Source: a virus
Lineage: Duplodnaviria > Caudoviricetes
Length of the DNA: 64,000 nucleotides
Reading direction: 5' to 3' (one strand)
Virus record (IMG/VR): IMGVR_UViG_3300014204_000011
Coordinates: 21,751 to 85,750 of that record
The notes beneath the pieces were generated by a model. That model saw only the letters and a list, made by a program, of their open reading frames with translations. It was not told the DNA's origin and did not search any database. The stretch's first letter is position 1; every line of letters begins with the position of its first letter. This document shows, piece after piece, positions 1,432 to 38,007 of this stretch. A program made the translations under genes and the position numbers.

Positions 1432-1432
1432 A

Positions 1433-1630: not shown

Positions 1631-1640
1631 GGAGAATATA

Positions 1641-2898: not shown

Positions 2899-2904
2899 AT
2901 ATTT

Positions 2905-5066: not shown

Positions 5067-5854
5067 TCAAAAACCTTAATCTTTATATTCTCACCAATTC
5101 TTGACGGATCTCCTCCATAAATATTAAGTTTATTTTTTATATCATCCTGAAGAGTATAATGAGTATTACCGTTCTTACATACTTTTAATTTAAAATACTC
5201 GTTTTCTGATTCAGGTTTTTTATTAGTTCTTAATTGATCTATAATTGTATGATCTGGTAATTTTTTTCCGTCCAGGATATAACAAAGTTTCTCAAGATCA
5301 TCTGTAATAGTTGGCTTATCTCTATAATAACCAAAAACACGAGAATAATCATATGTGGTTATAATAAAGGTTGTATCTATGCCGTTATTGTTACGTTTCT
5401 TTTTAGTGCTGGAATTGTAATTACTACCTCCAGTATAATAATAACTGTCTGTAATTCGTTCATAAACTGATTTCATCATGGTTTTGATATTATCATAAAT
5501 AATATCTTTTAAACTGGCTATATATCCTTCGGCGTTTTCAATAGTAAATACGGGAAAATCAAATTGATCAATTTGTTTCTGCATTTTTTCATAATCAGTA
5601 CAGAGCATATATTTTTCAAGTTCAAATAATCTGATAAGATATTGCCAGCATGTTCTATCAATGTATTTTTCAGCTCTGTTATCACTATAATTATCAAATC
5701 TATATTCAATTCGATAAGGTCGATAACCTTTAATTTCAGAAAGATCTTTTTCTATTTCATTATCAAGCTTTTCAAGCATTGATAATTGAGTTAAAAGTAT
5801 TTGTTTAAGATTAAATATTTCAGTTATTGATTTGCGCTTTACTGGTAAATTCAT
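5063..5854 (-). CDS. DUF4942-like protein
   Basis: IDRTCWQYLIRL, ITDDLEKLCYILDGK and ENEYFKLKVCKNGNTHYTL match my recollection of the family. Confidence 0.7.
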   Translation of the reverse strand: MNLPVKRKSITEIFNLKQILLTQLSMLEKLDNEIEKDLSEIKGYRPYRIEYRFDNYSDNRAEKYIDRTCWQYLIRLFELEKYMLCTDYEKMQKQIDQFDFPVFTIENAEGYIASLKDIIYDNIKTMMKSVYERITDSYYYTGGSNYNSSTKKKRNNNGIDTTFIITTYDYSRVFGYYRDKPTITDDLEKLCYILDGKKLPDHTIIDQLRTNKKPESENEYFKLKVCKNGNTHYTLQDDIKNKLNIYGGDPSRIGENIKIKVFD

Positions 5855-6057
5855 TTTATCACTTCCAGTTCAATATCTACAAAATTCAATCCACCTTGTT
5901 TATTTTGAATATATTCTAAATTCTCAGGACAATTATCAAGTTTAACAAGAAAACATTTAGATAAAAATCCGGTTTCAGCTTCTTTTGAGATTATAGTTCC
6001 TTCTCCGTAACAAGTTTTAACTCTATCGTTTATTTTCACTTTACCTTCCTCCTGCAC
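5851..6057 (-). CDS. Hypothetical protein (SH3/KOW-like beta fold possible)
   Basis: KINDRVKTCYGEGTII; overlapping operon organisation. Confidence 0.5.
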   Translation of the reverse strand: MQEEGKVKINDRVKTCYGEGTIISKEAETGFLSKCFLVKLDNCPENLEYIQNKQGGLNFVDIELEVIK

Positions 6058-6251
6058 TCTTCTAATAAGCTTTCAAGCTTTTCTATTGTAGGATTACGGT
6101 CAAGAATAATCCGTACATATGTAATACTTCTATCAAGCAATAGGCTTAATTTCTCTGTACTGCCTGCTCTGTGAATATAAAGCCCTATCTCTTTTGCGAG
6201 ATAGAGCTTTAATTCTGTTCGGACTTCTTTATAGTTTTTACTGGTGATCAT
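6036..6251 (-). CDS. Hypothetical protein, possible small DNA-binding protein
   Basis: ATG with GAGG RBS; basic and helical. Confidence 0.5.
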   Translation of the reverse strand: MITSKNYKEVRTELKLYLAKEIGLYIHRAGSTEKLSLLLDRSITYVRIILDRNPTIEKLESLLEECRRKVK

Positions 6252-6382
6252 TTATCCTCTGATTTTTTGAAAGTCTTTTTAGGTCTTTTACTGTCGTGAT
6301 GTTTGACGTATGCCATAACTTCAACGTCTGACATATTCACTTGTAATGCTTTTTTAAACTGCTTAATGCTTTTTTGTGTCAT
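6248..6382 (-). CDS. 44-aa hypothetical protein, missing from the ORF track
   Basis: MTQKSIKQFKKALQVNMSDVEV...; AAGG RBS; TGA overlaps the next ATG. Confidence 0.5.
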   Translation of the reverse strand: MTQKSIKQFKKALQVNMSDVEVMAYVKHHDSKRPKKTFKKSEDK

Positions 6383-6548
6383 TGTCCTTACCTTTTATCC
6401 CTTTTTTTATTTTTAATAAAGCTTTGATTCTTGCCTTGTAGTGTTCGTCACTTTCTTCATAATATTTGAGCTTACCCGTAAAGTCATAGATCGGAATTGT
6501 AAAGTTTTTGTTTTTAAAATTTCTTACCCTTCTTAAAATACAATTCAT
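6363..6548 (-). CDS. Hypothetical protein
   Basis: ATG with AGAGG RBS. Confidence 0.5.
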   Translation of the reverse strand: MNCILRRVRNFKNKNFTIPIYDFTGKLKYYEESDEHYKARIKALLKIKKGIKGKDNDTKKH

Positions 6549-6587
6549 AACTTGCCTCTTTTTTAGATGGAAGATCTGGTTATTTTG

Positions 6588-6755
6588 CTATATACAAAAT
6601 TGTGAAAAATATTTATTCATATCAATTTTTATTATTTTATTATTTTCTAGTTTAAAATAAAGATATTTATGACCAACTTTTACTAATGTTGAATTATTAT
6701 GAAAAGGGTGAGAAAGTTTCCCAAGATTTTCAATGGTGTTGAAATATTTTTTCAT
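6588..6755 (-). CDS. 55-aa hypothetical protein, missing from the ORF track
   Basis: GGAGA RBS then MKKYFNTIENLGKLSHPFHNN...; first gene after the leftward promoter. Confidence 0.55.
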   Translation of the reverse strand: MKKYFNTIENLGKLSHPFHNNSTLVKVGHKYLYFKLENNKIIKIDMNKYFSQFCI

Positions 6756-6789
6756 TTTGTATCTCCTTTAAAATCAATCTCTTATCTAT

Positions 6790-6900
6790 TTATACTATTA
6801 TCAAATCTGATAATGTTTGTCAACAATAAAAGTTAAAATTTTTTACTTTTTTTGATTTTTTTTCGTACTTGACAAAATCTGAATTTATTATGTAAATAAA
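6790..6900. promoter_or_regulatory. Divergent sigma70-like promoters
   Basis: TTGACA at 6823-6818 (minus) and 6869-6874 (plus), separated by A/T tracts. The -10 matches are imperfect. Confidence 0.6.
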
Positions 6901-6923
6901 CCATTATTAACCAGGAGTTATTT

Positions 6924-8936
6924 ATGAATAGAGATCAAATAATTGATTTAATAGATAGACAAATAGACTTTACTGATATGAAAAAAGCTGGTCTTGCACT
7001 GCAAAAACATTATGAAATTAATTCAAGACGCATGGAAGCAATAGATGTTAAAAACTGTCTTGCTAATGGTCATCCAATTGCCATACAGGGAAAATTGATT
7101 ATTGGTTATGATATGCAAAAAGCTTTTGAAAGTAGTGATAGCGAATTTTTTGATATAGAAAGACCGGTTGAAGCTATTGAAATTGTTGAAACTCTTCCAG
7201 AGCGAGAATATTTCGCTATTGTAGGTCGTAACGAATGGGGAGATATTTCAGAATTTAATAATATCATAGGTGATTTAAGACTTGGTGAAATATATCTGCC
7301 TAAACATTCTGCAATATTCAACTTCTTAAATCCTACGGAAAAGACTAAAAAAGAAAAAATTCAAAGTGTTCTTAACGGAGTTCAAGTAATTGTTTATGAA
7401 AGAGAAAACTATGTAGATAACTGCTTCCATGAGATCGGACACCTGTTCTGGAGAACTTGTACAAGATTTGAAGAAAAGATGCAATTTAAAGAATTATTTA
7501 AACATTTACGAACATCTTGTATTTATGAATACGAATGGGAGCGAAGTACGGAAGAAGAGGTTTTTTGTACAATTTATAAATGGTATATGAAGTCTGTGCT
7601 TATAAACAAGAGTTTTTACAACATACTTGAATACGAAGAAAGCTATGGACTTAAATTATTACAAAGTGTTTTTGACCGTATCGCTAAAGAACGGATCATT
7701 GACGATATATGGGAAATGAGCAAAGAAGATGTTATTGAATATTTAAACCCTCCCCTGGATAAAACGACCGGAAAATATATTCGTAAATCAGGTATGTTTG
7801 ATAAGATTAAAGATATAGAACTGCCTGAAAGCATATTGAACCGGATTGAAAGCGTACAGAATGGACAGGCTTTTGTTGGGCTTGGTAAAGCCGTAGTGCC
7901 GGTTAATAATAATCTGATTGATTTTGATAGAATTAAAATGATACCTTTGGAGAAAGCTAATGGTAAACCAACAATATATCTCGATCAAGATGGAATTGTT
8001 ACAAATTTTGCAGAAGCCTACAAGATAGCCTTTAATCGTGATGTATTTAAAGATGACAGTTTTACAGTGACAGAAATGTGTAAAACTGAGCCAAGATTTT
8101 TCTTAACTATACCAGTATTACAGCGTGGTAAAGAATTATATAATCGCTTGGTTAAAAAGTATAATATAATATTTCTCACAACCGCTATGGATGAACTTGA
8201 ATATTGTAGATCTGATAAAGTGACTTGGCTTAAACAGAATATATGTTCAGAGCCTACAATAATATTTTCTGATAATAAAGCTGATTATGCACATTCTGAA
8301 AAAGATATACTCGTGGATGATATGGCTCATAATTTAACCGCATTTTATGAAGCTGGAGGGACTGCAATCAATTTTAATTCTATGTCGAATGATGAGATAA
8401 TGCAAAAGATTGCAGAGACATTAAATCCACAGGAAGAAATAAGACAGATAAAGCAACAAATTAAAGAAATGAAAGTTAATGTAGAGCCGAGTGAAAAACA
8501 AAAAGAGAATGGAAATTACGCTAAAGGAAAAATAATATTTAAACAGATACCAATAACTATAGAAAATCCAAAGGGAAGTATAAGATCAGGCATAGGCGCA
8601 AACGGTGTGAAATGGTTGTCTAAAATGAGTTCACACTACGGATATATTAAAGGTACTGAAGGCAATGATGGAGATGAAATTGATTGCTTTATTGGAGATG
8701 ATTTCAGCACAAACAAAGCCTTTGTTGTAAACCAGGGTTTTAATAATTTATTCGATGAGCATAAAATTCTCCTCGGTTTTAATACAATAGAGGATGCCAG
8801 AACCGCTTTTCTGAAATGTTATTCTAAAGGTTGGGAAAAGAATATCATGAACATAGTACCGACCAATACAAAAGTGTTGAGACAGTGGCTAAAGACCGGC
8901 AATTATAAAGAGCCGTTTAGTGGTGAGTTTAAATAA
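6924..8936 (+). CDS. Polyvalent protein: zincin metallopeptidase + HAD 5'(3')-deoxyribonucleotidase-like + inorganic pyrophosphatase-like domain
   Basis: HEIGH at 7428-7442. TIYLDQDG...LVDDMAHN HAD motifs. ITIENPKGSIRSG...HYGYIKGTEGNDGDEIDCFIG...DEHKILLGF InPase motifs. Confidence 0.85.
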   Translation: MNRDQIIDLIDRQIDFTDMKKAGLALQKHYEINSRRMEAIDVKNCLANGHPIAIQGKLIIGYDMQKAFESSDSEFFDIERPVEAIEIVETLPEREYFAIVGRNEWGDISEFNNIIGDLRLGEIYLPKHSAIFNFLNPTEKTKKEKIQSVLNGVQVIVYERENYVDNCFHEIGHLFWRTCTRFEEKMQFKELFKHLRTSCIYEYEWERSTEEEVFCTIYKWYMKSVLINKSFYNILEYEESYGLKLLQSVFDRIAKERIIDDIWEMSKEDVIEYLNPPLDKTTGKYIRKSGMFDKIKDIELPESILNRIESVQNGQAFVGLGKAVVPVNNNLIDFDRIKMIPLEKANGKPTIYLDQDGIVTNFAEAYKIAFNRDVFKDDSFTVTEMCKTEPRFFLTIPVLQRGKELYNRLVKKYNIIFLTTAMDELEYCRSDKVTWLKQNICSEPTIIFSDNKADYAHSEKDILVDDMAHNLTAFYEAGGTAINFNSMSNDEIMQKIAETLNPQEEIRQIKQQIKEMKVNVEPSEKQKENGNYAKGKIIFKQIPITIENPKGSIRSGIGANGVKWLSKMSSHYGYIKGTEGNDGDEIDCFIGDDFSTNKAFVVNQGFNNLFDEHKILLGFNTIEDARTAFLKCYSKGWEKNIMNIVPTNTKVLRQWLKTGNYKEPFSGEFK

Positions 8937-9706
8937 TGCTTTATTTAAAGGTTGGTGAGAACAAATATATAAAGCTTGAAAGTCTTGAAAAGGCTAGAAG
9001 TCATAAATATGTAAGTAGAAAGCCTGATGGAAAGGGTGGGTGGAAATATTTTTATGCGGATAAAGATAATAAACCTTCGGTAAGAATGGCTAATTACAAT
9101 GACAAATCTTTAAGAATTTATAACAATTTTGAAGGTAATATTTTTAGTGAAAGGCATGGAATAATACAATCAACAAGTAAACAGTCTATCATTAAAAGTA
9201 TTGAAGTTGAAAAAGAAATTGTTAAGAATACAGATTTTGAAACCGGCGCAGCTTTTGACAAAAATGGGAAACTTCTAATAAAGAAAAAAGGTGTTTATGA
9301 TAAAGTTAATTTTGTAGATCCTGAATACAGAATAATAAATGGTTCGGAAATTTTTACACATAATCATCCAGAAGACAAATCTTTTAGTGATGACGATCTT
9401 ATTTTCGCTCTTGTTTTAGGCATTAAAGAAATGCGAATTATATCTCCCTTAAAAACATATTCTTTTAAAATTAGCCATAAAAATAAATCTAAAGATTTAC
9501 AAGAACTTTCTGATAATATAAAATATTATCAGAAAAAAATAATTCAACATCAAAAAATTATTCAATCTGAGAATAGTGATTTAATGAATCAAAATCCTGA
9601 TGAATATTTTTTAAAAAAAGATCATAAAGTGATAGAATCACTAAAGAATGATTCTAATTTTTTAAAACATTTTAACATAAATTACGAGGTAAAAAATAAT
9701 GAATGA
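8936..9706 (+). CDS. Leader-bearing protein with JAB/MPN-like domain
   Basis: 20-aa leader ending LEKA, then RSHKYVSRKPDGKGGWKYFY. ETG...HNHPEDKSFSDDD metal-binding motif. Confidence 0.75.
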   Translation: MLYLKVGENKYIKLESLEKARSHKYVSRKPDGKGGWKYFYADKDNKPSVRMANYNDKSLRIYNNFEGNIFSERHGIIQSTSKQSIIKSIEVEKEIVKNTDFETGAAFDKNGKLLIKKKGVYDKVNFVDPEYRIINGSEIFTHNHPEDKSFSDDDLIFALVLGIKEMRIISPLKTYSFKISHKNKSKDLQELSDNIKYYQKKIIQHQKIIQSENSDLMNQNPDEYFLKKDHKVIESLKNDSNFLKHFNINYEVKNNE

Positions 9707-9869
9707 TAATTTTTTTAATCCCATAAGTAAGGAAACGAAAGAAAAAGGTTTTTTTTCTTTAGGAGGTATGGAAAAAGATATAAAGAGGCAAGAAGAATTA
9801 AAGAATATAAACCTTAAAGATTTGGAAAAAGAAATAGAAGAACTGGAGAAGAGATTGGATCATGAATAA
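9699..9869 (+). CDS. 56-aa hypothetical coiled-coil peptide, missing from the ORF track
   Basis: GAGG RBS; MNDNFFNPISKETKEKGFF...LEKRLDHE; overlaps both neighbours. Confidence 0.55.
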   Translation: MNDNFFNPISKETKEKGFFSLGGMEKDIKRQEELKNINLKDLEKEIEELEKRLDHE

Positions 9870-10050
9870 TATTGAAATAAAAAATCCTGAAGTCCATATT
9901 GACGGATCTTCTAATAAATTATTTTATATTTTTGCAGATAAAGTCTTTAAAACAGGTAATAATCAAACCGAAAAAGAACAGCTAAAAGTTAAAATCAATA
10001 AATCAATACTTAATATCGAAGAAAAAAATATGCTATTAGGTTTTTTATGA
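9862..10050 (+). CDS. Hypothetical protein
   Basis: Overlapping operon organisation. Confidence 0.55.
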   Translation: MNNIEIKNPEVHIDGSSNKLFYIFADKVFKTGNNQTEKEQLKVKINKSILNIEEKNMLLGFL

Positions 10051-10325
10051 CAGATTTAGAGAGTAGAAATTATCGTAAAGTTTTTCATCCAAATGGAATG
10101 AGTATAGATACTATAGATATGAATGAATCTTTTAAATGGGAGAAATCTTGTGAATATAGTTTTTCTGAAAAATCAAAACTTATAACTAAGATATTAACAA
10201 AATATGGTATTGAGGATGAAATAATAGTTCAAAGATTAAAGAAATGTTTACCAAAAGGTAAAAATGAATTTTTATCTTATACAGATAATGAATACGAATC
10301 ATTAATAAAGGAGTTTAACTTATGA
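10047..10325 (+). CDS. Small protein, paralog of 14306..14611 (candidate immunity/partner)
   Basis: Shares SEKSK, R[LI]KKCLP, DNEY and KEFNL with the paralog. Confidence 0.7.
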   Translation: MTDLESRNYRKVFHPNGMSIDTIDMNESFKWEKSCEYSFSEKSKLITKILTKYGIEDEIIVQRLKKCLPKGKNEFLSYTDNEYESLIKEFNL

Positions 10326-13300
10326 AAACAAAAATAGACTTCTCGCTCTATACTCCTCAGATGTTGCGTGATCAGATTCAAGAAGAGCTTTTAAAAGTCG
10401 ATGATGCAAAGCAAGCGTCATACAATGCAATTGTTTTTCTCAATAATTTATATGGAGCAAAGAACATGCAGAAGGCAAAAGAACTTTCCAAACTTATAAA
10501 AAAACAAATTATTGATAAAACTGGTAAATCAACTACAGTTTATGTCAAACCCGAAGGATCTAAAACTGAATGGCTAAATAAATTCATTAGTTTCTTTGGA
10601 TTTAGTAATGCAGGTCAAGCTAATCAGCGTATTGAACAGGATTATAAAAAGCTTGAACTTGATAAAAAAGGCGTGACCTGGTCAGATTGGAAAAGTCATG
10701 TAAGTGAATATTTCAGCAATAAAGATAAATGGGACAGATTTTTTTCAGGTAAATCTTCAGAGAAAAAAGCTACAGAAAAAAAAGAAGATGCAAAAGCAAA
10801 GAAAGCTGAAAAGAAACCGGTTAAGCAGACTTTTAAATTATCTCTCATGAAAGTAGTTGCAGGATTGTACGGTAAAGCTCCGGAGAAGAAGAAAGAAGAA
10901 CCGGTAAAGGCGGTTGAAAAACCCATTGAAAAACCTATCGAAAAGCCAGTCGAAAACAATTTTGATACTATGCCAGAAACCGTTGCAGAACCTGAACCAG
11001 AACCAGTTAAAGAAGAGCCTGTTAAATCAGGTGAAGAAACTCTTCAGGGTAAATTCGATAGATGGAAAACAGGAGATTTAACAGGTGTTGAAGGTCATAA
11101 ATTTAATATGACTAAAACTATGATGGGTAAAGGTGGTCCTAAAACATTTTTTAATGAAATTATTATAGAGAAAATATCAAATGGATTTATGAGTTATGTT
11201 GATGCTGTAGGTGGTAGGGAAAGTTTTTCAGGTGGCATTTCTGAAAAAGGGTTTATTAATGATTTAAAAAATGGTTCGATGATTCCCGTAGGTCTGGAAA
11301 AAACCATTGATACCGGTAACGGATCTAAGATTGAAGCTGTTAAAGCCTACACTCCTGAACAGAGAAAAGAGGTTAATGCCGATGCTAAAGAAGCGGCGAG
11401 AGAGGGTTATTTTAACGAACGACCGGCTGAGATATTAAATGTCGGTAAAGATGTATGGGGTGCAGCTAGACATAATTATGATACTTATCAGCAAATGAAC
11501 GCTGATGTAAATCAAATGGAAAAAGAAGGAACTGCACAAGCATATGTAACAAAGAAGAACCTTTTCGGAGATTATGGACTTGCCAATAAAGATGAAAGAG
11601 TTGGCAAAGGTGAAACCGAATATAAGGTATTAGCAAGTTTTGTAATGAGAGAATATCTTTCTAAAATGCCTCCGAATAATCCTACAGATAGAGCAATGTA
11701 TATGGATTTTTGTCGTGCCATTTCAAGACTTGATCAAAATACAACTGATGCTAAAACATTTTATTTTGGTATGGCTGAGACTTTTGCTCAGATGTTTCCG
11801 ATAGAAGCACAAAAACCAGCCACTCCTGGACAGGGTATAAGCGTACTTGATATGATACCACAGAATAGAAAAGGTAAAAAACCTGAAGACATTATAGGCC
11901 CTGTTCTTACGGCTTTATTCTATTCACTGAATCAGCAGGCTAATCAGAGCCGGAACATATATTACGGTATGGATAAGAAAGAACGTAAGCAGATGGATGT
12001 AATGAGTGCAGCACTTCTAGCTGAAATCGGTAAGACTAATAAGACTTATAATGAACTTGAAGTTATGATTTTTGGAGAAACAAAACTATCCGGCATTAAA
12101 ATGAAAAAAGGTGATGCGGTTGTGTTTGCTGAAAATCTTGCTGATCATGTTTATGCTATAAGAATAGATTATGCTAGTGATGAAGATAAATTAAAGCATG
12201 ATGCTTTAATAAAAGAAATTAATAATATTGGAGCAGATGGTCATTTTCTATATCTTTCAAATAAAGAAAAAGAAAAGAAATTACCTGAACTCAATAAGAA
12301 ATATGGAACTAATTTTACTATGGATAAATCGTGGGAAGTTACGAAATATATAGATGAATTAGTAAGAGAAAAATCAGTTGAAGCTGCTAAATATAGAATA
12401 AGAACTAAAATTTTCCCAGAAGAAAAAGGACAGATTATAAAAGTTGGTAAAAGTGATATAGAGGTTGCATTCAAATTTCCTAATGGAACAATTAAAGGTT
12501 TTAGAATGAAACCAAGTGAATTAAAACCTGAGAATGTAGAATCTATTTCAAAAGACATAAAAAGGAAAGAGACACTAATATTGAATCTTGCCGTTGAAAA
12601 AAAAGTAATTCGTAAAGGTGGTAAAGATTTCTCAGGTCTTTCAATTACTGAACTTCAAAATAAACTTACCGAAGATTTTAAATTCAAAGCTATTCAGTAC
12701 GGAAACAGTGTACCAGATGACGAAAGACAGTATCATACACAATGGACTCTTGAATCAATGTCTGATCTTGAAGATATTACAGGCATACCATTAGAGCAAC
12801 TTACAGCACGGGGTAAACTTGGTATAGCTTTTGGAGCAAGAGGTAAGCCTATCCCTGGAATTGGAGCAGGTGCTTTAGCTCATTATGAACCTACAACTAA
12901 AATGATAAATATTACCCGTGCCAATGGTTACGGCAGTCTTGCTCATGAGTGGGCGCATTTCGCCGATAATATTTTATCACCAGATATGAATGATTATATT
13001 ACTATTCAGCCCAAAGCTATTGTAAAAGAAGTAAACTCTTCTAATATTAAAATAGGTTCGATTTATGAACACGAAACAAGGAAAGGTAAAAAGACAATTA
13101 CAGAAAGATACTATTATGATGGTAAAGATCCAGAATGGCCTTTTGCTAAATTAAATAATGGTCAGAGTGAACCCGATAGTAAATCAATGCACTCTAACTT
13201 TTATAAATTTAAAAACGGGCAATCTCTAAAAGTTTTAGAACCTGATAATTTACCTTTTATGGAGATAGCTTCTAAAATTGCAAGATTATCACAACAGTCT

Positions 13301-13678
13301 TTGCACGATCAAGCCAATAAGATCGATGATGGAATAAACAAAAAGCATATATTAGAAGATCCATATTTAAATGACAGAAAAGAATGTTTCGCCAGAGCTT
13401 TTGAAATATATATTGCAGATAAACTCAAAGAAAAGGGAAGAGTGAATACATATCTTGTAAGTCATAGAAAAACATTTGAACAGGATGGAGCTTCAATTTA
13501 TCCGCAGGGAACATTTAGAACCGAAATAAACAAAATGTTTGATGAGTTTTTTATAGAAATAAACAAAAATCAGGAGATGAAAAAAGCAATAGACAAATTA
13601 TTAAAACAGAATAAAAATGTTTATATAAAGAAACTCAATCCCATAACTCAAAAGCCCGAATACAGGAAGGTAAAGTGA
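10322..13678 (+). CDS. Large polyvalent protein with C-terminal LPD1-like metallopeptidase region
   Basis: AIQYGNSV, GKLGIAFGARG, AHYEP, GSLAHEWAHFAD (HEWAH 12944-12958), ECFARAFE, YPQG. MQKA at 10466-10477 and MKKA at 13577-13588. Confidence 0.85.
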   Translation: MKTKIDFSLYTPQMLRDQIQEELLKVDDAKQASYNAIVFLNNLYGAKNMQKAKELSKLIKKQIIDKTGKSTTVYVKPEGSKTEWLNKFISFFGFSNAGQANQRIEQDYKKLELDKKGVTWSDWKSHVSEYFSNKDKWDRFFSGKSSEKKATEKKEDAKAKKAEKKPVKQTFKLSLMKVVAGLYGKAPEKKKEEPVKAVEKPIEKPIEKPVENNFDTMPETVAEPEPEPVKEEPVKSGEETLQGKFDRWKTGDLTGVEGHKFNMTKTMMGKGGPKTFFNEIIIEKISNGFMSYVDAVGGRESFSGGISEKGFINDLKNGSMIPVGLEKTIDTGNGSKIEAVKAYTPEQRKEVNADAKEAAREGYFNERPAEILNVGKDVWGAARHNYDTYQQMNADVNQMEKEGTAQAYVTKKNLFGDYGLANKDERVGKGETEYKVLASFVMREYLSKMPPNNPTDRAMYMDFCRAISRLDQNTTDAKTFYFGMAETFAQMFPIEAQKPATPGQGISVLDMIPQNRKGKKPEDIIGPVLTALFYSLNQQANQSRNIYYGMDKKERKQMDVMSAALLAEIGKTNKTYNELEVMIFGETKLSGIKMKKGDAVVFAENLADHVYAIRIDYASDEDKLKHDALIKEINNIGADGHFLYLSNKEKEKKLPELNKKYGTNFTMDKSWEVTKYIDELVREKSVEAAKYRIRTKIFPEEKGQIIKVGKSDIEVAFKFPNGTIKGFRMKPSELKPENVESISKDIKRKETLILNLAVEKKVIRKGGKDFSGLSITELQNKLTEDFKFKAIQYGNSVPDDERQYHTQWTLESMSDLEDITGIPLEQLTARGKLGIAFGARGKPIPGIGAGALAHYEPTTKMINITRANGYGSLAHEWAHFADNILSPDMNDYITIQPKAIVKEVNSSNIKIGSIYEHETRKGKKTITERYYYDGKDPEWPFAKLNNGQSEPDSKSMHSNFYKFKNGQSLKVLEPDNLPFMEIASKIARLSQQSLHDQANKIDDGINKKHILEDPYLNDRKECFARAFEIYIADKLKEKGRVNTYLVSHRKTFEQDGASIYPQGTFRTEINKMFDEFFIEINKNQEMKKAIDKLLKQNKNVYIKKLNPITQKPEYRKVK

Positions 13679-14322
13679 CTAACAGACTTATAATTAAACT
13701 GGCTGATGGTCTTTATATAGATTTAAGTAAAGCCCGAAGTCATAAATATATCAGTCGCAAACCTGATGGTAAAGGAGGTTGGATTTATACTTATTATAAA
13801 AAACCTGTTGGAAATAGTTATGCTGTAAATTATAATGATATGAGAGATTTTGATTATGAAAAAGCAGTTCAAATATATAAAGATACAGAATCTATAAGAA
13901 ATATTAAAAATTATGAACATTCAAAAATATATGATAATAAAGGGATAGTGTTACTTTATAAAATATTTCCTAAAACTGGAGGGAGTTTTACTAATGAAGA
14001 ATTAAATAAAATTGAAAATTCAAAATTATTAATACATAATCATCCTTCAGGAGATTCTTTTTCCACAAAAGATATTCAGTTAATTATCGAAAAAAATATA
14101 AATGAAATTAGAGCCATAGGTCAAAAAGAAAAAACAAAAACTATTTTTTCTTTAAAATTGGAAAAACAAATTCCAATTGAATTAAAAAGAGATTTATTGA
14201 ATTACCATTTTAGCTTATGGAATATAAATAAAACAACTGGAGATAAATTTTTTGCTCATAAAACAATGCAAGATTTTATAAAAGTTTATGGAGAATATTT
14301 TAAATATGAAAGAATTAAATAA
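13675..14322 (+). CDS. Leader-bearing protein with JAB/MPN-like domain, paralog of 8936..9706
   Basis: GTG start. 20-aa leader ending LSKA, then RSHKYISRKPDGKGGWIYTY. YEH...HNHPSGDSFSTKD. Confidence 0.75.
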   Translation: MTNRLIIKLADGLYIDLSKARSHKYISRKPDGKGGWIYTYYKKPVGNSYAVNYNDMRDFDYEKAVQIYKDTESIRNIKNYEHSKIYDNKGIVLLYKIFPKTGGSFTNEELNKIENSKLLIHNHPSGDSFSTKDIQLIIEKNINEIRAIGQKEKTKTIFSLKLEKQIPIELKRDLLNYHFSLWNINKTTGDKFFAHKTMQDFIKVYGEYFKYERIK

Positions 14323-14611
14323 AAAAGATTTTAAAAGAAATAAAATTTATCATGAATTGTTTTATCCAAATTCGCCTTTAGGTTTAGATGGAGAAGAAAT
14401 GTCTTCTGAAAAATTTGCGGAAAAAATAAAATCTTCTAAAATATCTGAATCAGAAAAAAGTAAAATAATTAAAATATTGATACAAAATTATGATTTTATA
14501 GATAAAAATATATACAACAGAATAAAAAAATGTCTACCAAATGGATTTAATTCAATGTATTCAATAGAGGATAACGAATATTTTGAATTAAAAAAAGAGT
14601 TTAATTTATAA
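14306..14611 (+). CDS. Small protein, paralog of 10047..10325 (candidate immunity/partner)
   Basis: Overlaps the JAB gene end; GGAG RBS before ATG 14306 (14288 is an alternative start). Confidence 0.7.
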   Translation: MKELNKKDFKRNKIYHELFYPNSPLGLDGEEMSSEKFAEKIKSSKISESEKSKIIKILIQNYDFIDKNIYNRIKKCLPNGFNSMYSIEDNEYFELKKEFNL

Positions 14612-14652
14612 AAAAACATGAATATTATTAATAAAATGGAAGGTTAAATAAC

Positions 14653-17600
14653 ATGGCAAATAAAATATTTTTTAAAACAGTTGAAGGTAAATATGTATCA
14701 CTTGATAAAGCTTCAAATCCCGAAGATAAAGTTCGTAAGGTTATGGGTGAGTTTAAAAGAGGTACTTTACATTCCAGTTCCGGTCAAAAGGTAACTTCAA
14801 AAGACCAGGCTTTGGCAATCGCAATGTCGGAGAGTGGATTATCTAAACAAATGGTTGCTGATATTCTTATTGATTATGATGATATGGAAAAAGCAAGTCA
14901 GATAAAAGAAGGGATTAAAGTAGAAAAAGAACATATTCCTACTATGAAATATATTAAAGATAAGTTTGGAAAATATCATAAAATGGCTAATACTGAAGAT
15001 ATTGCCGAGCACATCGCCGGAGACCATCTTGAAGAGATAAAAGATTATTATACAAGATTACTTGAAATGGAAAAACAGGCTAAAGGCGATAAAAAAAGAC
15101 CTCAAATCGAAATTGATGTAATTAAATTTTTAATTGATAATCCGAATCCTGCGGATAGTAAAGTTCATACTTTTAGTGATAAAATAGGCATAGACACACA
15201 TAAACTTGAAGCGATATTCTATAAACTTGCTACTGAAAGAGCTGAAATGAGTAAAGACATGCAGAAAGCTAAGTCTGCAATAGGTACTACTGCAACTTGG
15301 GCTGACGGTAAACAATATCGTAAAGTAGCTGAAGGTCAATGGGAACAGGTTAAGGGTGACGGTAAAAGCCATAATGCTAAATTAGGTGGCGGAGCACATG
15401 GTTATGGCAAACACGATGTAAGTACAGCACCGAAGCTTCATAAGAGATTTATGGATTATCTACAGAACATGAGCCAGGAACATCGGGACATATTCAGAGG
15501 CGGTAAGTTTGATTTTGAAAAGAAAACATTTACAGCTATAGGCGGTAAAGTAGCTTTGCTTTGGAAAGATGATAAAGTTAATATTGTTAAGACTGATAAA
15601 ATGGATAAAGCCCGTGTGACCAAATATATAAAAAGAGTGCCGAAGCCGTCAGGTAAGGGTTATTATTATTTCTATACAAAGCAGCAGTTTAACCAGTATA
15701 AAGAGACTGGAAAAGTTCCTGAACAAGAAAAAGGCGATTCAGCTTTACAAAAGATATTCAAATTTTTAGGTGTTGATAATTGGATGGACGGTAGTAAAAA
15801 AATAGGTTCAATATACGAATCTAATAAAAGCTCTCTTCTTGAAAATAATGTCGATAAAAAGACTTTTGCTGAATACAGTGTAGAATACTTATCTAATAAG
15901 GAAAAATGGGATTCTCGTTTAAGTGGTGAGAAAAAAGAAAAGTCAGAGTCAAAGCCTAAGTCTGAACAGCCTAAATCTGAGAAAAAAGAGAGTGGTGATA
16001 AAAAAGAAGGTAAATGGAACATGGGTGTAATGCGAGCTATTGCAGGGATTTATGGAAGCGGAGAAATAAAGAAAATTGATACAGAAATGCCTATGCCTAC
16101 TACTCCCAACAAAAAAGATGATAAGAATAAAAAAGATAAGGAAGCCCCTAAAAAAGGTTTTGAAGATGAGCTAAATGAACGGGAAAAAGAAGGTAACAAT
16201 AAAACTTATACTAATAAGATAAAGCAATTACAAAATGAAATAAATAGTTTTTCCAAAACAGCTTCCGGAGGAAGTAAATATTCTCTTGATTCTAAAGGAA
16301 ATGAAGATTCTGGAGAAATGTCTATTCAATTAAAAGATAGTGTATCTGGTAAAATTATTCCTAATACACAAATAACTGGTAAAATTAAAGATTTTTTAAA
16401 TATTAAAAATCAATTGATTGAAAAAATGAAAGAAATAGACAGTAATGACAAATCCCCTGACAACTTCGATACTATGCCGGAGGGGGACGATATAGAAAAA
16501 GGCATAGAGGATTATTATAAAAAAATTACAGAAGAATTTAGTAATGAAAAACCTGATTTAAATAAAATCAAGAAAGTTGCTAAAGAAAAAGCTGATAAAA
16601 TAAATTCAATTATGAATAAAGAAATTTCTTTAGATACAGGCGGAATAGTTAAGTCAAATAAGAAGTTTATACTTGAAAAATATGATCCAAAAGAAGATAA
16701 AATGACTTTTAAAGATAATAACGGAAAAACTCAGGAAATAACTTTTTCTAAATTTGAAAAAGAAAATCCTAAATTTTTTAACAGTCAAAAACCCTCCGCA
16801 ACCGAAGCACTGAAAACTTTTACGATAGTAGATAATAATAATCCTGAAAGAACCGTAAAAGTGCAAGCTAAAGATGAAAATGAAGCTAAAGATAAAGGTG
16901 CTTCAGAACTTAAAACTACAAACATAAGAACTTATGAGTCAAGTAATAAAGTAGAAGCACTGAAAGATGAGTTGGGGAAGAAAAAGAGCGAGAGTAGAGA
17001 AAGAGAAATAACTGTTTTTGGTAAACAGCAAAAAGTTAAAACTAAGCCGATAGAATTAAACTTGGGATATGGTCATCCTTTTGAGATTGCTAAAAGAGAA
17101 TTTGGAAGTGGTCGCTCAGATTGGATTATTCTTGAAAGTAGTACGGGTTTAAAGGTTGGAGATGGCAAAACTCAAAAAGAGGCTATTAGTAACGCTGAAT
17201 CTATGATAAAAAATTATACTCCAACAGAGAATGAATTTAAAAAATTAATTGAAAAAAGTTTATCTTCCGAAAATGTTTTAAAACGTGAAAAAGAAATAGA
17301 AAAAAATAAAGAAATAGATAAAAAAGTTGAAAAAGATTTTGAAGATAAATCTGAAAAAGGCCAGTCCCAAATAAAGAAAAACGAAGAAGATGATAAGCGA
17401 AAACAGGTTCAAAAAGATAAATTAAATTCTTCAGATCCACAGAAAAAATATGATGCAATGAAGGAAGAAATTAGAGATTTTTCAGAAAGAAATAATATAT
17501 CTGAAAAAGAAATAACAAAAGAATGGATAAATGAAGAAAGAAAACGTTTTCAACAGGATATAAAAGATGCTTATAAGTATAAAAAACCGAAAGAAGCTGG

Positions 17601-18111
17601 AGTTTATAAAGTTGGATTAAAAGAACTTGATAATATTGAAAAATATCAAAAAGAAATGATTTCTTTAAAAGAAGAACTACTCGGCCCGAAAATGTTCAAA
17701 GCCCTGTCAAATCTAAGAGAAGAGTTAATGTTTAAAGCCCAAACTACAAAATATATTAAAAGAATACCCGATCCAAAAGGCAAGGGATATATTTACTTTT
17801 ACACACAAGATCAGGTTAAAGCATATCAGAAAGATGGAACTATACCAAATCAGCAGAAAAAGCCTAAGACTAAACCAGAACAAGGTGGTAAAACTAACAT
17901 AGAAAAGCTTAAAGAAACTACAAAAAAAATAGCCACTATTGTTGCTGATGCTTTAAGTGCTAAAGATGCGGTAAATCCTGCTGGACAGGCAGTAGAACAA
18001 GCCGGAGAAGATATAAACGAAAAGAACAAAATGAAAAAAAGACTTGAAGAAAAGCAAGTACCTGATAAAAAGAAACAAGTTAATAAACCGGAGGAAAAAC
18101 CGAAAAAGTGA
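14653..18111 (+). CDS. Large multi-module polyprotein (DUF6496-like, DUF5661-like, repeated KY modules), likely internal virion protein
   Basis: KVMGEFKRGTLHSSSGQKVTSKDQALAIAMSE; GIKVEKEH...DHLEEIKDYYTRL; IGTTATWADGKQYRKVAEGQW; two KYIKR.P.P.GKGY.YFYT modules; five or more [LM]xKA sites. Confidence 0.75.
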   Translation: MANKIFFKTVEGKYVSLDKASNPEDKVRKVMGEFKRGTLHSSSGQKVTSKDQALAIAMSESGLSKQMVADILIDYDDMEKASQIKEGIKVEKEHIPTMKYIKDKFGKYHKMANTEDIAEHIAGDHLEEIKDYYTRLLEMEKQAKGDKKRPQIEIDVIKFLIDNPNPADSKVHTFSDKIGIDTHKLEAIFYKLATERAEMSKDMQKAKSAIGTTATWADGKQYRKVAEGQWEQVKGDGKSHNAKLGGGAHGYGKHDVSTAPKLHKRFMDYLQNMSQEHRDIFRGGKFDFEKKTFTAIGGKVALLWKDDKVNIVKTDKMDKARVTKYIKRVPKPSGKGYYYFYTKQQFNQYKETGKVPEQEKGDSALQKIFKFLGVDNWMDGSKKIGSIYESNKSSLLENNVDKKTFAEYSVEYLSNKEKWDSRLSGEKKEKSESKPKSEQPKSEKKESGDKKEGKWNMGVMRAIAGIYGSGEIKKIDTEMPMPTTPNKKDDKNKKDKEAPKKGFEDELNEREKEGNNKTYTNKIKQLQNEINSFSKTASGGSKYSLDSKGNEDSGEMSIQLKDSVSGKIIPNTQITGKIKDFLNIKNQLIEKMKEIDSNDKSPDNFDTMPEGDDIEKGIEDYYKKITEEFSNEKPDLNKIKKVAKEKADKINSIMNKEISLDTGGIVKSNKKFILEKYDPKEDKMTFKDNNGKTQEITFSKFEKENPKFFNSQKPSATEALKTFTIVDNNNPERTVKVQAKDENEAKDKGASELKTTNIRTYESSNKVEALKDELGKKKSESREREITVFGKQQKVKTKPIELNLGYGHPFEIAKREFGSGRSDWIILESSTGLKVGDGKTQKEAISNAESMIKNYTPTENEFKKLIEKSLSSENVLKREKEIEKNKEIDKKVEKDFEDKSEKGQSQIKKNEEDDKRKQVQKDKLNSSDPQKKYDAMKEEIRDFSERNNISEKEITKEWINEERKRFQQDIKDAYKYKKPKEAGVYKVGLKELDNIEKYQKEMISLKEELLGPKMFKALSNLREELMFKAQTTKYIKRIPDPKGKGYIYFYTQDQVKAYQKDGTIPNQQKKPKTKPEQGGKTNIEKLKETTKKIATIVADALSAKDAVNPAGQAVEQAGEDINEKNKMKKRLEEKQVPDKKKQVNKPEEKPKK

Positions 18112-18302
18112 AAGAAAAGATAATTATAAAAGATGCGGTTAAAAGAAACTGCCCGTTTTGTGGTACTATGTATGCTTACGAAAATAAAGAATTAGGGCAG
18201 GTTGTATATAGAAATGTAGCTTTTATATTTATAGATAAAGCAAAAAGCATTGAAACTATAAAATGTAAACAGTGCGGAAATGTAGTAGCAATCAATACTT
18301 AA
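18108..18302 (+). CDS. Zinc-ribbon protein (possibly Com-like)
   Basis: CPFC...CKQC; GTG start overlaps the previous stop. Confidence 0.65.
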   Translation: MKEKIIIKDAVKRNCPFCGTMYAYENKELGQVVYRNVAFIFIDKAKSIETIKCKQCGNVVAINT

Positions 18303-18311
18303 AATTAAGAC

Positions 18312-18341
18312 TTGACAGATTTTATATTTTTGTTTTAGAAT
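18312..18341 (+). promoter_or_regulatory. Sigma70-like promoter for head genes
   Basis: TTGACA-N18-TAGAAT upstream of the prohead protease. Confidence 0.65.
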
Positions 18342-18410
18342 GTACTCTAAATAATAAACAAATAATCCAGCCGTTACAAGGAAATGTTTATTTCTCTAAA
18401 GAGAGGTAAA

Positions 18411-19295
18411 ATGTTTTTTCAGATTAACGGCTTAACCATCCAAAACCTACAAAAAGCTTCAGACGACAAGCTTGTTAAAGTTGATATTATAGCCAATCAT
18501 CTTACCGAAGATAGTGACGGAGAAGTAATACTCAAAGAAGCATTTTCTCCCGAAGTTATCAATGATTTTCTTTCGACCGGCGTAATTAATTTCTGGCATG
18601 ATAATAAAAATCCTCTCTTATCAAAAGAAGAGCAAATGAACGCTTTACTTGGTAAACCCATAGCTTTTAGATGGGAGAATGGAAAGCCTGTAGTTACTGC
18701 ACAACTTACTAAATCACATCCTATCGTACAAACAATGATGCCTCATCTTGAAGCAGGTAATCCTGTGTATAGCGCAAGCGTAGATGGATCTAAAATGGTT
18801 ATGCTTGTAGAAAATAGTGAAGGTGAGAAAAAGAAAGTCATACCTAAAATCAAATGGAACGGACTTGCCATAGCCCCCTGTAATTCAGTAATCAATCGAG
18901 AACCAGGTGTTAATGTTAAATTGTTAAGTAAGGCAAATGATATAATTGCTGAATTTAACGATATGGATAGCTTTAAAATGATGTCTGGACAGATCTTCTC
19001 CCAAGAAACCGAACTCCGTAAAGCTTTATCTGCCCCTGAAAGTGTAGGTGATATGCAAAACACTTCAGGAGGAGTTATAACAAAACAAGATTTAGAAAAA
19101 AGCGTTACATCTTTAACCTTTTCCGAGGATGAAGCATGTAATCTTATAGATACAATATTAGGTATTAAAAATGGTTCGATACCAATAACAATAAATGAAT
19201 ATAAGAACCATTTTAAAAATAATGAAGAATTTGCTGATAAGTCTTATCGGCTGTTCGATAAATATTTCAAAAAAAACAACAAGGAGCAATCGTAA
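18411..19295 (+). CDS. Prohead maturation protease
   Basis: EDSDGEVI, INFWHD, YSASVDG, WNGLAIAP resemble Twort/SPO1-like proteases; directly upstream of scaffold and capsid. ATG 18411 has a GAGAGG RBS. Confidence 0.8.
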   Translation: MFFQINGLTIQNLQKASDDKLVKVDIIANHLTEDSDGEVILKEAFSPEVINDFLSTGVINFWHDNKNPLLSKEEQMNALLGKPIAFRWENGKPVVTAQLTKSHPIVQTMMPHLEAGNPVYSASVDGSKMVMLVENSEGEKKKVIPKIKWNGLAIAPCNSVINREPGVNVKLLSKANDIIAEFNDMDSFKMMSGQIFSQETELRKALSAPESVGDMQNTSGGVITKQDLEKSVTSLTFSEDEACNLIDTILGIKNGSIPITINEYKNHFKNNEEFADKSYRLFDKYFKKNNKEQS

Positions 19296-19296
19296 C

Positions 19297-20076
19297 ATGA
19301 TAACAAAAGAAGAATTGTTACAGAAAGGAATTGATCCTGCCGAAGCTGATAAGATAATTTCGGCTCTCGAAGGACAAGCTGAAAATTCCTCTCCCCTTGA
19401 AGCTCTAAATAAGGCTCTAAAAGATGATTCAGAAATGGATTCTCTTTTTAAAGCAGCCAAAAAGGGAGAGGGTGATGAGGATGACGAAGAGGATGAAGAG
19501 GAATATGACGAAAAGTTCATGAAAAAGATGAAAAAGTACATGAAGTCAAAAGGCAAAGAAGACAGTGGTGATGACGATGACGACAAAGGCTTTTTCGGAA
19601 AAGAAATGAAAAAAGCTGTTGATGACATTAATCCTGATTCAGATGGACTTGTTATTGAAATGGCTGATTTTAAACCGGTTTTTGAGTCTATGGTATCGAC
19701 AATACAAAAGATGTCAAAAGCTATATCCGGACTTGAAAGAAAGGTTGAAGTTCTTTCAGAGCAAAACTCTGATTCTTACAGTCTTTTGGCTAAAGCTGCT
19801 GCTGTTACTGCCGAAACTGCGGAGATTGTAACTGGAATGGGTAATATTCCGGCTGGAAGAAAAGGTGCTTTAATAGCAGACATGAAAAAAGCTAAACAAG
19901 TCGAAAATGTAGATCCTCAAAAAGTTTGGACAGCTCTCGCTAAGGCTGTAAATGCCGGTGATTTGAAAGCTGGAGAAATTGGATCTAAATTTGAAAGTGC
20001 TGGAAAAAGATTCGGTTTTCTATCTGATCCAGAACAGGCTTATGTTATGGAACTTATGAAAAAGGAGGCTAACTAA
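19297..20076 (+). CDS. Capsid scaffolding protein
   Basis: Acidic and helical with many KA sites, between protease and capsid. AAGGAG RBS favours ATG 19297. Confidence 0.75.
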   Translation: MITKEELLQKGIDPAEADKIISALEGQAENSSPLEALNKALKDDSEMDSLFKAAKKGEGDEDDEEDEEEYDEKFMKKMKKYMKSKGKEDSGDDDDDKGFFGKEMKKAVDDINPDSDGLVIEMADFKPVFESMVSTIQKMSKAISGLERKVEVLSEQNSDSYSLLAKAAAVTAETAEIVTGMGNIPAGRKGALIADMKKAKQVENVDPQKVWTALAKAVNAGDLKAGEIGSKFESAGKRFGFLSDPEQAYVMELMKKEAN

Positions 20077-20077
20077 G

Positions 20078-21592
20078 ATGGATGAACTATATATGTTAGC
20101 AGAAAACGGGATGGGGGACATGGGGCTTGGCTCTCTATCGCAACTTGAAGCATTAAGTAAAGCTCTTTCTGCCCCTGCGAGTTATACAGATCTTTATACA
20201 ACTCCAGGTGGCTCACTTACAATGCAATCATTGGAAATGATGCTTGCAACTCTTACTCTTAAAGCTACTGATTTTACTCTATGGCAGGATATGAACAAGA
20301 TGAAAGCATATTCTACTGTTGAAGAATATGATCAGCAGACTGGTCTTGGTATCTCTGATGGTGGATTTGTTGACCAATTCAGCAATCCTACATTTCAAGA
20401 CGCTGATTTTATCAAACAAATCTCAATTGTTAAGTTCATGAGAGAAGGTTGGAAGGTTGGTGATGTACAGGAAGCAACCAGAACAACTATAGACATAAGA
20501 ACAAAACAACAGCAAGCTGCTATGGCAAGGATGTTGAGAAACCTTGACCGTGCGCTTTATAACGGTAACTCTGCATGGATTCCTGAAAGTATTGATGGTC
20601 TTGCTAAAACCATTGCTGCTTCTTCTTCAGAACAGATTTATGATATGAGAGGCGGTAATGTAACTATGGGTACATTTAACCTTATCGGTCAGCTTATCAC
20701 TGAAGGAAATGGTCAGGTAGAAAATGCGAAAATATATGTTTCTCCGGCTGGAGTTCAAAATCTAAGCACTATTACTGAAGACGGTACTACTGCTGCTAAT
20801 AACAGAAAGATAATGAAATCTGGTGATGCTAATATTACTATCGGTGGTAAAATATCAGGTATTATGACAAATTTCGGTGAGATGAAACCGAGAATGGATA
20901 AAATACTTGGTCTTGAATTTGAAGCACAAGGCGTTCCTAAATACAGGAATAATACTACCGGTCTTTGGGTAGAAGGTGCTACTGCTGATAATGCTCCTTC
21001 AGCTCCGGCGGTTGCTCTTACTGTTAATGCTGTTGGTACAGGCTCTAAGTTTAGCGCAGGTACAACCAGACCTTCAGGCGTTGCATATTCTTATAGAGTA
21101 AGTGCAAGGAATAAATATGGAAGATCAATAGCTTGCGCTGCTGTAACGGCTGGTTCAACTGTAGCTGCCGGTGGATCTATTTCAATTGCTATTACTCCCG
21201 CTGCTGGAGATAGCGGTGCGAAAGTTCCTTCTTGTTTCGTAATTTATGCTAAAAAAACAGAAGATGCGAATAATGATTATAGATACATGGACACAATCGC
21301 TGCGGATGCAACTAATCCTCTTGCTGCCGTAACATATGAAGATAAAAATCTTTATATACCAGGTACAGCGAGAATGTATGTTATAGACCAAACTACACAG
21401 GGAGAAAGCAGAGTTCTTTCTTATGCTCAGTTACTTCCTATTCACAACACAGATCTTGCTAAAGTCGGGCCTTATAGCCAGGGACTTATCAATCTGTATG
21501 GTACTATGAAATATTACAAGCCGAATGTTCTTGTTGAAATCAGAAATATCGGTGTATCTCAGACAAATGCAAATCTTTACAATGTAGTTTAA
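20078..21592 (+). CDS. Major capsid protein (Twort/SPO1-like)
   Basis: Propeptide ending LSKA; SLTMQSLE, AYSTVEEY, SIDGL; FN3-like insertion YSYRVSARNKYGRS; LINLYG. Confidence 0.9.
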   Translation: MDELYMLAENGMGDMGLGSLSQLEALSKALSAPASYTDLYTTPGGSLTMQSLEMMLATLTLKATDFTLWQDMNKMKAYSTVEEYDQQTGLGISDGGFVDQFSNPTFQDADFIKQISIVKFMREGWKVGDVQEATRTTIDIRTKQQQAAMARMLRNLDRALYNGNSAWIPESIDGLAKTIAASSSEQIYDMRGGNVTMGTFNLIGQLITEGNGQVENAKIYVSPAGVQNLSTITEDGTTAANNRKIMKSGDANITIGGKISGIMTNFGEMKPRMDKILGLEFEAQGVPKYRNNTTGLWVEGATADNAPSAPAVALTVNAVGTGSKFSAGTTRPSGVAYSYRVSARNKYGRSIACAAVTAGSTVAAGGSISIAITPAAGDSGAKVPSCFVIYAKKTEDANNDYRYMDTIAADATNPLAAVTYEDKNLYIPGTARMYVIDQTTQGESRVLSYAQLLPIHNTDLAKVGPYSQGLINLYGTMKYYKPNVLVEIRNIGVSQTNANLYNVV

Positions 21593-38006: not shown

Positions 38007-38007
38007 A

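Follow-up and report, generated by a model that had tools for sequence, protein, structure and literature searches.

What is encoded by the large genes that stand directly upstream of the head protease of an uncultured myovirus, and why do they carry the same tetrapeptide, Leu/Met-x-Lys-Ala ([LM]xKA), that ends the propeptide of its capsid protein? Both questions are raised by the block at positions 6924–21592 of the 64,000-nucleotide stretch of DNA that was analysed as a whole (the window), which comprises bases 21751–85750 of the 85,750-bp contig IMGVR_UViG_3300014204_000011 and holds the structural module of an uncultured myovirus with SPO1-like head genes. An earlier interpretation made from the letters alone (the sequence-only reading) had taken the genes before the protease for an array of cargo proteins, which would be addressed to the capsid by a shared leader, cut by the prohead protease into separate enzymes and injected with the DNA. 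The positions of the sites, shuffling of the proteins and the cassette structure of orthologues uphold the core of this proposal, in that [LM]xK↓A (the arrow marks the scissile bond) is very probably the code of the protease and stands at propeptides and at joints. Loading and cutting of the cargo are probable, since the protease's own signal is found at the starts and domain joints of these proteins.

The protein encoded at 18411–19295 (+ strand, 294 aa) is, on the evidence of hhalign, the modelled fold and invariant residues, a prohead serine protease of the S78/HK97 type in the SPO1 branch, with a predicted assemblin/T4 gp21 fold and homologous to the S78 protease of SPO1. It gave no direct Pfam match, and a search of PDB sequences made directly with it returned only noise. 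The profile of its superfamily was aligned with SPO1 gp3.2 at 98.2% probability (E 4e-14, 225 columns; hhalign). SPO1 gp3.2 matches the Pfam family Peptidase_S78 (PF04586) with 23.7 bits against a cutoff of 21, as does a staphylococcal phage homologue, and distant relatives of the window protease match phrog_1028, annotated 'head maturation protease'. The AF2 model has a pLDDT of 67, with values of ~60–90 by 10-residue block in the core (residues 21–150), and its first structural match by Foldseek is T4 gp21 (5jbl; prob 1.00, E 8e-4), followed by herpesvirus proteases. Among 34 homologues with 21–38% identity only six columns are invariant, including His63, Ser123 and Lys204; the counterparts of H63 and S123 in SPO1 gp3.2 lie in its motifs FDHDN and FSVEG. 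Three putative self-sites, K15↓A, K174↓A and K204↓A, all keep the form hydrophobic-x-K-[AST] across the same alignment, and residues 1–17, with the N-terminal site, are modelled as disordered.

The order protease, scaffold and major capsid protein (MCP) is that of SPO1. In the scaffolding protein, located between the other two (19297–20076, + strand, 259 aa), seven of the eight KA dipeptides lie within [LM]xKA. The MCP (20078–21592, + strand, 504 aa; phrog_752, 2e-69) has a propeptide of residues 1–28 (20078–20161) which ends at LSK↓A (20153–20164). It aligns to the SPO1 capsid protein Gp6.1 (PDB 9vel, ALNK↓AL) and to the MCP of phi812. The full-length phi812 capsid protein (PDB 5lii, 463 aa) reads EDVVK↓SFQTGYG, and the shorter sequence deposited for a staphylococcal phage capsid, chain 9row_B (439 aa), starts at SFQTGYG, a start that was placed at Ala29 of the window MCP by ungapped extension of the alignment. 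Because the start of 9row_B lines up with Ala29, the cut of the MCP would be K28↓A29. The same comparison of 5lii with 9row (VVK↓SFQTGYG) agrees with the Lys-Ser maturation site which the sequence-only reading gave for Twort/A511-like capsids.

The code can be followed into SPO1. A hydrophobic residue occupies P3 before 11 of the 14 K[AST] in the SPO1 scaffold gp3.3, and further sites are found in the SPO1 MCP (ALNK↓ALEAG), in the protease (ADILK↓S and PLDK↓SLEAG) and at the N-terminus of the portal (LSK↓A and LEK↓S), while three downstream SPO1 proteins that were checked contain zero hydrophobic-x-K[AST] sites. In a weak alignment of the window scaffold with gp3.3, three K↓A sites pair with K↓S. 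Judged from these comparisons, the hydrophobic-x-Lys↓Ala/Ser code is ancestral to the SPO1 branch, and we hold with high confidence that [LM]xK↓A is the predicted site of the head protease on capsid, scaffold and protease itself.

The protease and the capsid protein also resemble each other beyond the tetrapeptide. The protease segment after the third self-site (19014–19140, LRK↓ALSAPESVGD..GGVITKQDLE) and the MCP segment after the maturation site (20153–20260, LSK↓ALSAPASYTD..GGSLTMQSLE) are 48% identical over 42 aa (E 4e-10). The resemblance is present in SPO1 and in distant family members as well, and a profile search with the protease drew proteins of ~500 aa, taken as capsid proteins, through residues 17–64. 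Possibly the protease mimics the capsid N-arm so as to be co-assembled. Two further head proteins contain the tetrapeptide: the portal (genome 17543–19201, 4.2 kb before the window) has the C-terminus GMEK↓AKSIRLI, with the site seven residues from its end, and the MuF-like protein (2905–4293) has LEK↓A at residues 61–64.

Is the tetrapeptide in the genes upstream of the protease more than a product of their lysine content? All the sites reported there by the sequence-only reading (7947, 10466, 13577, 14884, 15259, 15601 and 17728) were found, as were LSKA in the capsid propeptide and LQKA, LSKA and LRKA in the protease; additional ones lie at 6978, 7113, 7881 and 17692, and seven are in the scaffold. 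Leu or Met is at P3 in 25 of the 42 KA dipeptides of the block at 6924–21592, compared with 15 of 93 in the 115 other genes (Fisher p = 1e-6). An artefact of composition or of helix periodicity would be conceivable for Lys-rich proteins, given that Lys makes up 13% of the block versus 9% and that the scaffold is probably helical. However, composition-preserving shuffles give 2.04 expected sites for the five cargo proteins, in which 14 are observed, and 0.96 for protease, scaffold and MCP, in which 11 are observed (0/5000 shuffles reach the observed number in either case), so that the motif is well above the expectation for Lys-rich proteins. Moreover, Met, a rare residue, is at P3 in 12 of the 25 block sites; of the 91 [LM]xK in the block 25 have Ala as the next residue, and of the 219 elsewhere in the genome 15 do; and where scaffold sites align, K↓A of the window protein stands opposite K↓S of SPO1. 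The probability left to an artefact of this kind is negligible. The same trend is seen in six related contigs, in which 47/124 KA dipeptides of cargo proteins and 54/77 of head proteins fit the motif, compared with 3/31 of the tail genes, which serve as an internal control. The five small proteins of the block have zero [LM]xKA sites. No single codon set encodes the sites (five codons for Leu, AAA/AAG, GCT/GCC/GCA), which makes the motif one of peptide and not a DNA repeat; a repeat or recombination signal at the DNA level as its source is ruled out by this codon diversity.

The genes in question are on the same (+) strand as the head genes and encode five large proteins. By their domain content, the cargo proteins belong to the polyvalent class defined by Iyer et al. 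2017 (PMC5512222), with the Pfam domains InPase and NT5C/HAD in one polypeptide, LPD1 in another, and DUF6496 with DUF5661 in a third; their PHROG matches are to minor head protein, virion structural protein and giant DarB-like polyvalent families. Polyvalent cargo protein 1 (g6924; 6924–8936, 670 aa) has an N-terminal propeptide-like stretch, a zincin-like HEIGH motif, a HAD/NT5C domain at residues 346–496 (NT5C, 3e-07) and an InPase domain at 524–657 (4e-44), with sites at nt 6978, 7113, 7881 and 7947; its PHROG matches are to minor head and virion proteins. Polyvalent cargo protein 2 (g10322; 10322–13678, 1118 aa) begins with a helical propeptide that ends in MQKA (10466) and is followed by a degenerate copy of a basic element described below (the KY tag). 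Further on are a zincin-like region with HEWAH, a stretch (residues 760–905) that matches PHROG families, and LPD1 (1012–1082, 2e-16) with MKKA (13577) just after it. Both HEIGH and HEWAH were recognized by eye, and their regions have no Pfam match. Polyvalent cargo protein 3 (g14653; 14653–18111, 1152 aa) has a leader (14653–14712), DUF6496 at residues 24–61, DUF5661 at 78–141, KY tags at ~15613–15675 and ~17740–17802, and sites at 14701, 14884, 15259, 15601, 17692 and 17728.

The remaining two large proteins are RadC/JAB-like paralogues, which are 32% identical (E 7e-19). The first (g8936; 8936–9706, 256 aa) has a leader (8936–8995) ending in LEKA and a KY tag at ~8996–9055; the second (g13675; 13675–14322, 215 aa) has a leader (13675–13734), a KY tag at ~13735–13797 and the JAB domain at residues 53–215. 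The motif H-x-H...S-x-x-D is conserved in their family, its spacer being one residue shorter than what we take to be that of RadC. In a Foldseek search the model of g13675 matched RadC (2qlc; prob 0.99, E 6e-3) and then Rpn11, CSN5 and BRCC36, with E-values that are weak, and the profile of the JAB family gave no match to PDB sequences. Each paralogue is followed by a gene for a small partner protein, at 10047–10325 (92 aa) and 14288–14611 (107 aa), both on the + strand; the two partners are paralogues of each other, lack [LM]xKA and have in common the C-terminal pattern KCLP.G...NEY..L.KEFNL (by eye).

JAB-like gene, small 92/107-aa protein and large polyvalent protein thus form a three-gene cassette which is present in tandem (8936–18111). 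Similarity between the two large proteins of the tandem, g10322 and g14653, is limited to a module of ~110 aa that follows the KY tag (E 3e-5) and to the peptide NFDTMPE. The cargo protein that stands last before the protease has at its end, here and in all the related contigs, a conserved tail of the form ..I(V/F)ADALSAKDAV.P.G.AVE..GE (17917–18010), which occurs once per genome. One protease homologue (P0092) also has this tail at its end, and in the relative L012 (9239–9400) a hairpin leader immediately precedes it. The tail has the appearance of a third portable module.

Where do the sites stand in these proteins? All five have an [LM]xKA within residues 17–52, behind propeptides of three types: a hairpin leader (g8936, g13675 and g14653), a helical one of ~50 aa (g10322 and its orthologues) and one of 21 aa (g6924). 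The internal sites lie before the HAD domain (7947), between DUF6496 and DUF5661 (14884), 62 residues past the DUF5661 match (15259) and after LPD1 (13577). In alignments of orthologues, whole cassettes are gained or lost exactly between sites. One orthologue of g14653 lacks both DUF6496 and DUF5661, its leader being followed at once by MEKA and the KY tag, and the orthologue of g6924 in the relative L003 has an extra cassette of ~200 aa before HAD, which starts at FEKA followed by KYISRKPDGKGGW and ends at MTKA.

The three leaders, MLYLKVGENKYIKLESLEKA (8936), MTNRLIIKLADGLYIDLSKA (13675, with a GTG start) and MANKIFFKTVEGKYVSLDKA (14653), are each of 20 aa in this genome, as the sequence-only reading had it; the length is not general, the leaders of orthologues being 15–22 aa. 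A cut at K↓A would remove 19 residues. A profile built from 23 leaders finds exactly three genes in the genome, namely these. Since it is common to two unrelated protein families, the leader is a portable module, and this portability fits a function as address or as propeptide and proves neither. The N-terminus of the protease, MFFQINGLTIQNLQKA, was considered as a further copy of such an address element and was rejected; it is similar by eye and undetected by the leader hidden Markov model (HMM). In the AF2 model of g13675 (pLDDT 86.9) the leader forms a beta-hairpin (residues 5–17), the site is located in a loop (18–24, K19↓A20), and a hairpin of the KY tag (25–40) and the JAB domain follow.

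The KY tag is a basic element of the form K-Y-x-x-R/K...G..Y-x-Y, which begins 2–5 residues after a site in g8936, in g13675 and twice in g14653, with the degenerate copy in g10322. It matched no Pfam family at E up to 10 and gave no usable match in the ESM Atlas, and a region-restricted protein search together with a scan of viral contigs found it in the same clade only. Among 16 proteins retrieved by the tag-region search, g14653 included, [LMIVF]xK[AS] precedes 29 of 30 tags by 2–5 residues, and further contigs of the clade have the same pattern of site before tag. Cleavage at the sites would leave the tag at the N-terminus of every fragment set free; it might hold the fragment on DNA or capsid, signal ejection or serve the protease as an exosite.

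This tight coupling gives an opening to a different account, in which the sites of the head proteins are real and those of the cargo are only parts of portable modules (the leader and 'MxKA-xxx-KYIKR...YxY') that are never cut, the proteins being packaged whole or staying in the cytoplasm. That 29 of 30 tags travel with the preceding site as one unit, that a tag follows 5 of the 14 cargo sites, and that g8936 and g13675 as well as parts of g10322 and g14653 are paralogous all speak for it, and Iyer et al. (PMC5512222) describe N4 vRNAP and several conjugative polyvalent proteins as transferred unprocessed. However, nine cargo sites without a tag stand in unrelated contexts, against 2 sites of any kind that chance would give in the cargo proteins; scaffold, protease and capsid propeptide share the tetrapeptide, with its preference at P3 and P1', without the tag; the sites coincide with cassette borders; and the site of g13675 is in an exposed loop of the model. 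We therefore consider uncut modules unlikely.

Cutting by another enzyme must also be weighed. The cargo proteins could be processed by zincin-like metallopeptidases embedded in themselves and not by the prohead protease; the HEIGH of g6924 and the HEWAH of g10322 would be the candidates, and PMC5512222 offers both a proposal of autoprocessing and the precedent of P1 DdrB. Yet the JAB proteins and g14653 bear sites and have no recognisable zincin-like motif, and the identical motif marks the three head proteins. It is also conserved in SPO1, and no such metallopeptidase domain was seen in those of the SPO1 head proteins that were examined. A single protease with a single code is the simpler account, and we regard processing by the embedded enzymes as quite improbable.

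A third account concerns the three-gene cassettes. The JAB-like genes and their small partners might be toxin–immunity or enzyme–inhibitor pairs acting in the producing cell, with a leader of regulatory or secretion type. The duplication of the JAB/small/large cassette and the lack of sites in the small partners are in line with this. On the other hand, the leader is found in all relatives also at the start of the DUF6496 polyvalent protein, which is unrelated to the JAB proteins, ends in the motif of the head protease and lacks a hydrophobic core like that of a signal peptide, and the genes are inside the head module. An inhibitor that silences a packaged enzyme in the producer cell would in any case be compatible with cargo. 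There is little chance, in our judgement, that such pairs explain the block.

We propose the following mechanism as the most likely. The prohead protease would cut after Lys in Leu/Met-x-Lys↓Ala, with Ser at P1' presumably also tolerated in relatives. It would trim the capsid propeptide at K28↓A29, degrade the scaffold at seven sites and process itself at three. The three polyvalent and the two RadC/JAB-like proteins would co-assemble into the prohead, where the head protease would remove their leaders and separate some of their domains; the resulting pieces (zincin-like, HAD-InPase, JAB, LPD1, DUF6496 and DUF5661) would remain inside the head and, as early effectors, accompany the DNA into the cell. 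The steps differ in strength. Cutting of the cargo proteins in the prohead, at some or all of the sites, is in our estimation probable given where the sites fall. We suggest only tentatively, and at less than even chance, that the hairpin leader is a capsid address, and injection of the products with the DNA is an inference.

Several points weigh against this mechanism. The motif was defined post hoc from these same sequences, and the six related contigs are one clade. The site counts are partly non-independent, because 5 of the 14 cargo sites are in repeats of site plus KY tag and two leaders are paralogous. Only 2 of the 10 KA dipeptides of g10322 fit [LM]xKA. The HAD and InPase domains of g6924 have no [LM]xKA to part them, so that the expectation of a cut into separate enzymes holds only in part. 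An address element shared with the protease lacks statistical support, as the leader HMM misses the N-terminus of the latter. The cargo proteins carry zincin-like motifs of their own, and Iyer et al. (PMC5512222) propose embedded metallopeptidases as the processing enzymes. Packaging, furthermore, does not require cleavage, since 42 head proteins of SPN3US are uncleaved (PMC10052503). Finally, the phage is represented by metagenome sequence only.

How does the proposed system compare with those already known? The principle itself is known from the T4 internal proteins (IP) and Alt and from phiKZ/SPN3US. According to PMC12991175, which cites Mullaney & Black 1996, and to the review PMC9026906, T4 IPI–III and Alt have a capsid targeting sequence that is removed by gp21. 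The likeness to the present case lies in a short N-terminal peptide that ends in the motif of the phage's own prohead protease, in the presence of this motif in capsid protein, scaffold and protease, and in enzymes thought to act on the host after injection. In contrast to T4, the protease here belongs to the S78/SPO1 branch with Lys at P1 (L/M-x-K↓A, the T4 code being L/I-x-E), the leader is a hairpin of 15–22 aa instead of a peptide of ~10 aa, and the putative substrates, known from sequence alone, are large multi-domain polyvalent proteins with internal sites.

In phiKZ, 201phi2-1 and SPN3US, the prohead protease cuts many internal and ejection proteins, as well as itself, at a short motif, and the propeptides include short ones of 20 and 24 residues and have multiple sites (PMC10052503, PMC5694885). 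Cleavage at a short motif, short propeptides, several sites per propeptide and a self-cutting protease are features that the present phage would share. In these jumbo phages, however, the protease is T4-like, P1 is Glu and cleavage was measured by mass spectrometry, whereas the present phage has 86 kb and a Lys-based code that is read from its sequence. For the polyvalent proteins, the paper by Iyer, Burroughs, Anand, de Souza and Aravind (2017, PMC5512222) predicts delivery with the DNA and proposes processing by embedded metallopeptidases. InPase, LPD1, RadC/JAB and, as judged by eye, zincin-type motifs, and genes that adjoin virion genes, are common to their proteins and ours; in those passages of the paper that were searched no prohead-protease sites, hairpin leader or KY tag are described, while the joints here bear the code of the head protease.

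Head maturation in Herelleviridae is also among the closest known systems, namely that of SPO1 (gp3.2, gp3.3 and gp6.1) and the Twort-like phi812 (PDB 5lii and 9row), which have a homologous protease and capsid protein in the same gene order, a cut after Lys before Ala or Ser, a scaffold full of hydrophobic-x-K↓S/A, and a protease segment after the last site that resembles the capsid N-arm. The differences are a capsid identity of only 23–28%, a range that applies to SPO1-like Bacillus phages, Bacteroides DAC phages and other cultured phages alike, and a host that is here probably Gram-negative. In the stretches of SPO1 and S2G3 that were examined, moreover, the protease gene comes immediately after the portal gene, and no cargo block separates the two.

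With regard to the genome as a whole, the contig has a G+C content of ~30%, and a direct terminal repeat of 99 bp marks it as a complete phage genome (~85.6 kb). Genes for TerL and portal were found upstream of the window, while a tail sheath, baseplate proteins and the MuF-like protein are encoded within it; the sheath and baseplate genes identify the phage as a myovirus. Megablast of the cargo block against cultured phages gave zero nucleotide matches. Homologues of the protease with 54–80% identity are common in metagenomes, on contigs of ~80–94 kb. A gene for an outer-membrane phospholipase A1 (OMPLA) is located at 1641–2405 of the window (Pfam PLA1, 5e-21); because the phage encodes this enzyme the host is probably Gram-negative, and OMPLA possibly has a role in lysis. 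The head module is split by an opposite-strand block of 1.7 kb (5063–6755, − strand) with a DUF4942 protein and four small genes, with the MuF-like region on one side and the cargo block on the other; in the relative L004 the cargo genes come directly after the upstream head genes, with no intervening block. A second opposite-strand block, with reversed GC skew, lies inside the tail/baseplate region (33619–40497, − strand). In the relative L005, genes for a radical SAM protein, a methyltransferase and a glycosyltransferase (769–7028) are just upstream of a cargo gene.

Between the cargo block and the protease gene there is a gene for a small Cys-rich, zinc-ribbon-like protein (18108–18302, + strand), whose orthologue in L005 has a faint match to Zn_ribbon_4. 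Just upstream of the protease gene is the best sigma-70-like match of the region (18312–18341; 11/12, TTGACA-18-TAGAAT), which may give higher expression of protease, scaffold and MCP than of the cargo genes. Apart from this strong promoter-like site, a scan for promoters and terminators yielded nothing decisive on co-transcription.

What is new, then, is the Lys-based code in a head of the S78/SPO1 type, its use on polyvalent proteins, and the unit of site plus tag. A wider proposal would be that the Lys code of the SPO1-type S78 protease, a removable hairpin leader as prohead address and a retained KY tag make up a modular cargo system in a large clade of uncultured ~85-kb phages, readable from sequence across Herelleviridae-like phages; the tag would then stand at the front of each fragment, either to anchor it to DNA or capsid or to direct its ejection. 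We regard this wider proposal as possible but doubtful. The specificity of prohead proteases is also relevant to host immunity, since CBASS was recently reported to be set off when such enzymes cut sensor loops (PMC12991175). If the mechanism proposed here is true, the polyvalent class would gain a specific processing enzyme, distinct from the embedded metallopeptidases suggested for it so far, and a Lys-based system of leader and site would be at hand for loading foreign proteins into capsids, like the capsid targeting sequence of T4. The effectors carried in the virions of SPO1-like and Herelleviridae-like phages, a group that includes therapeutic staphylococcal and Listeria phages, would then be predictable from sequence.

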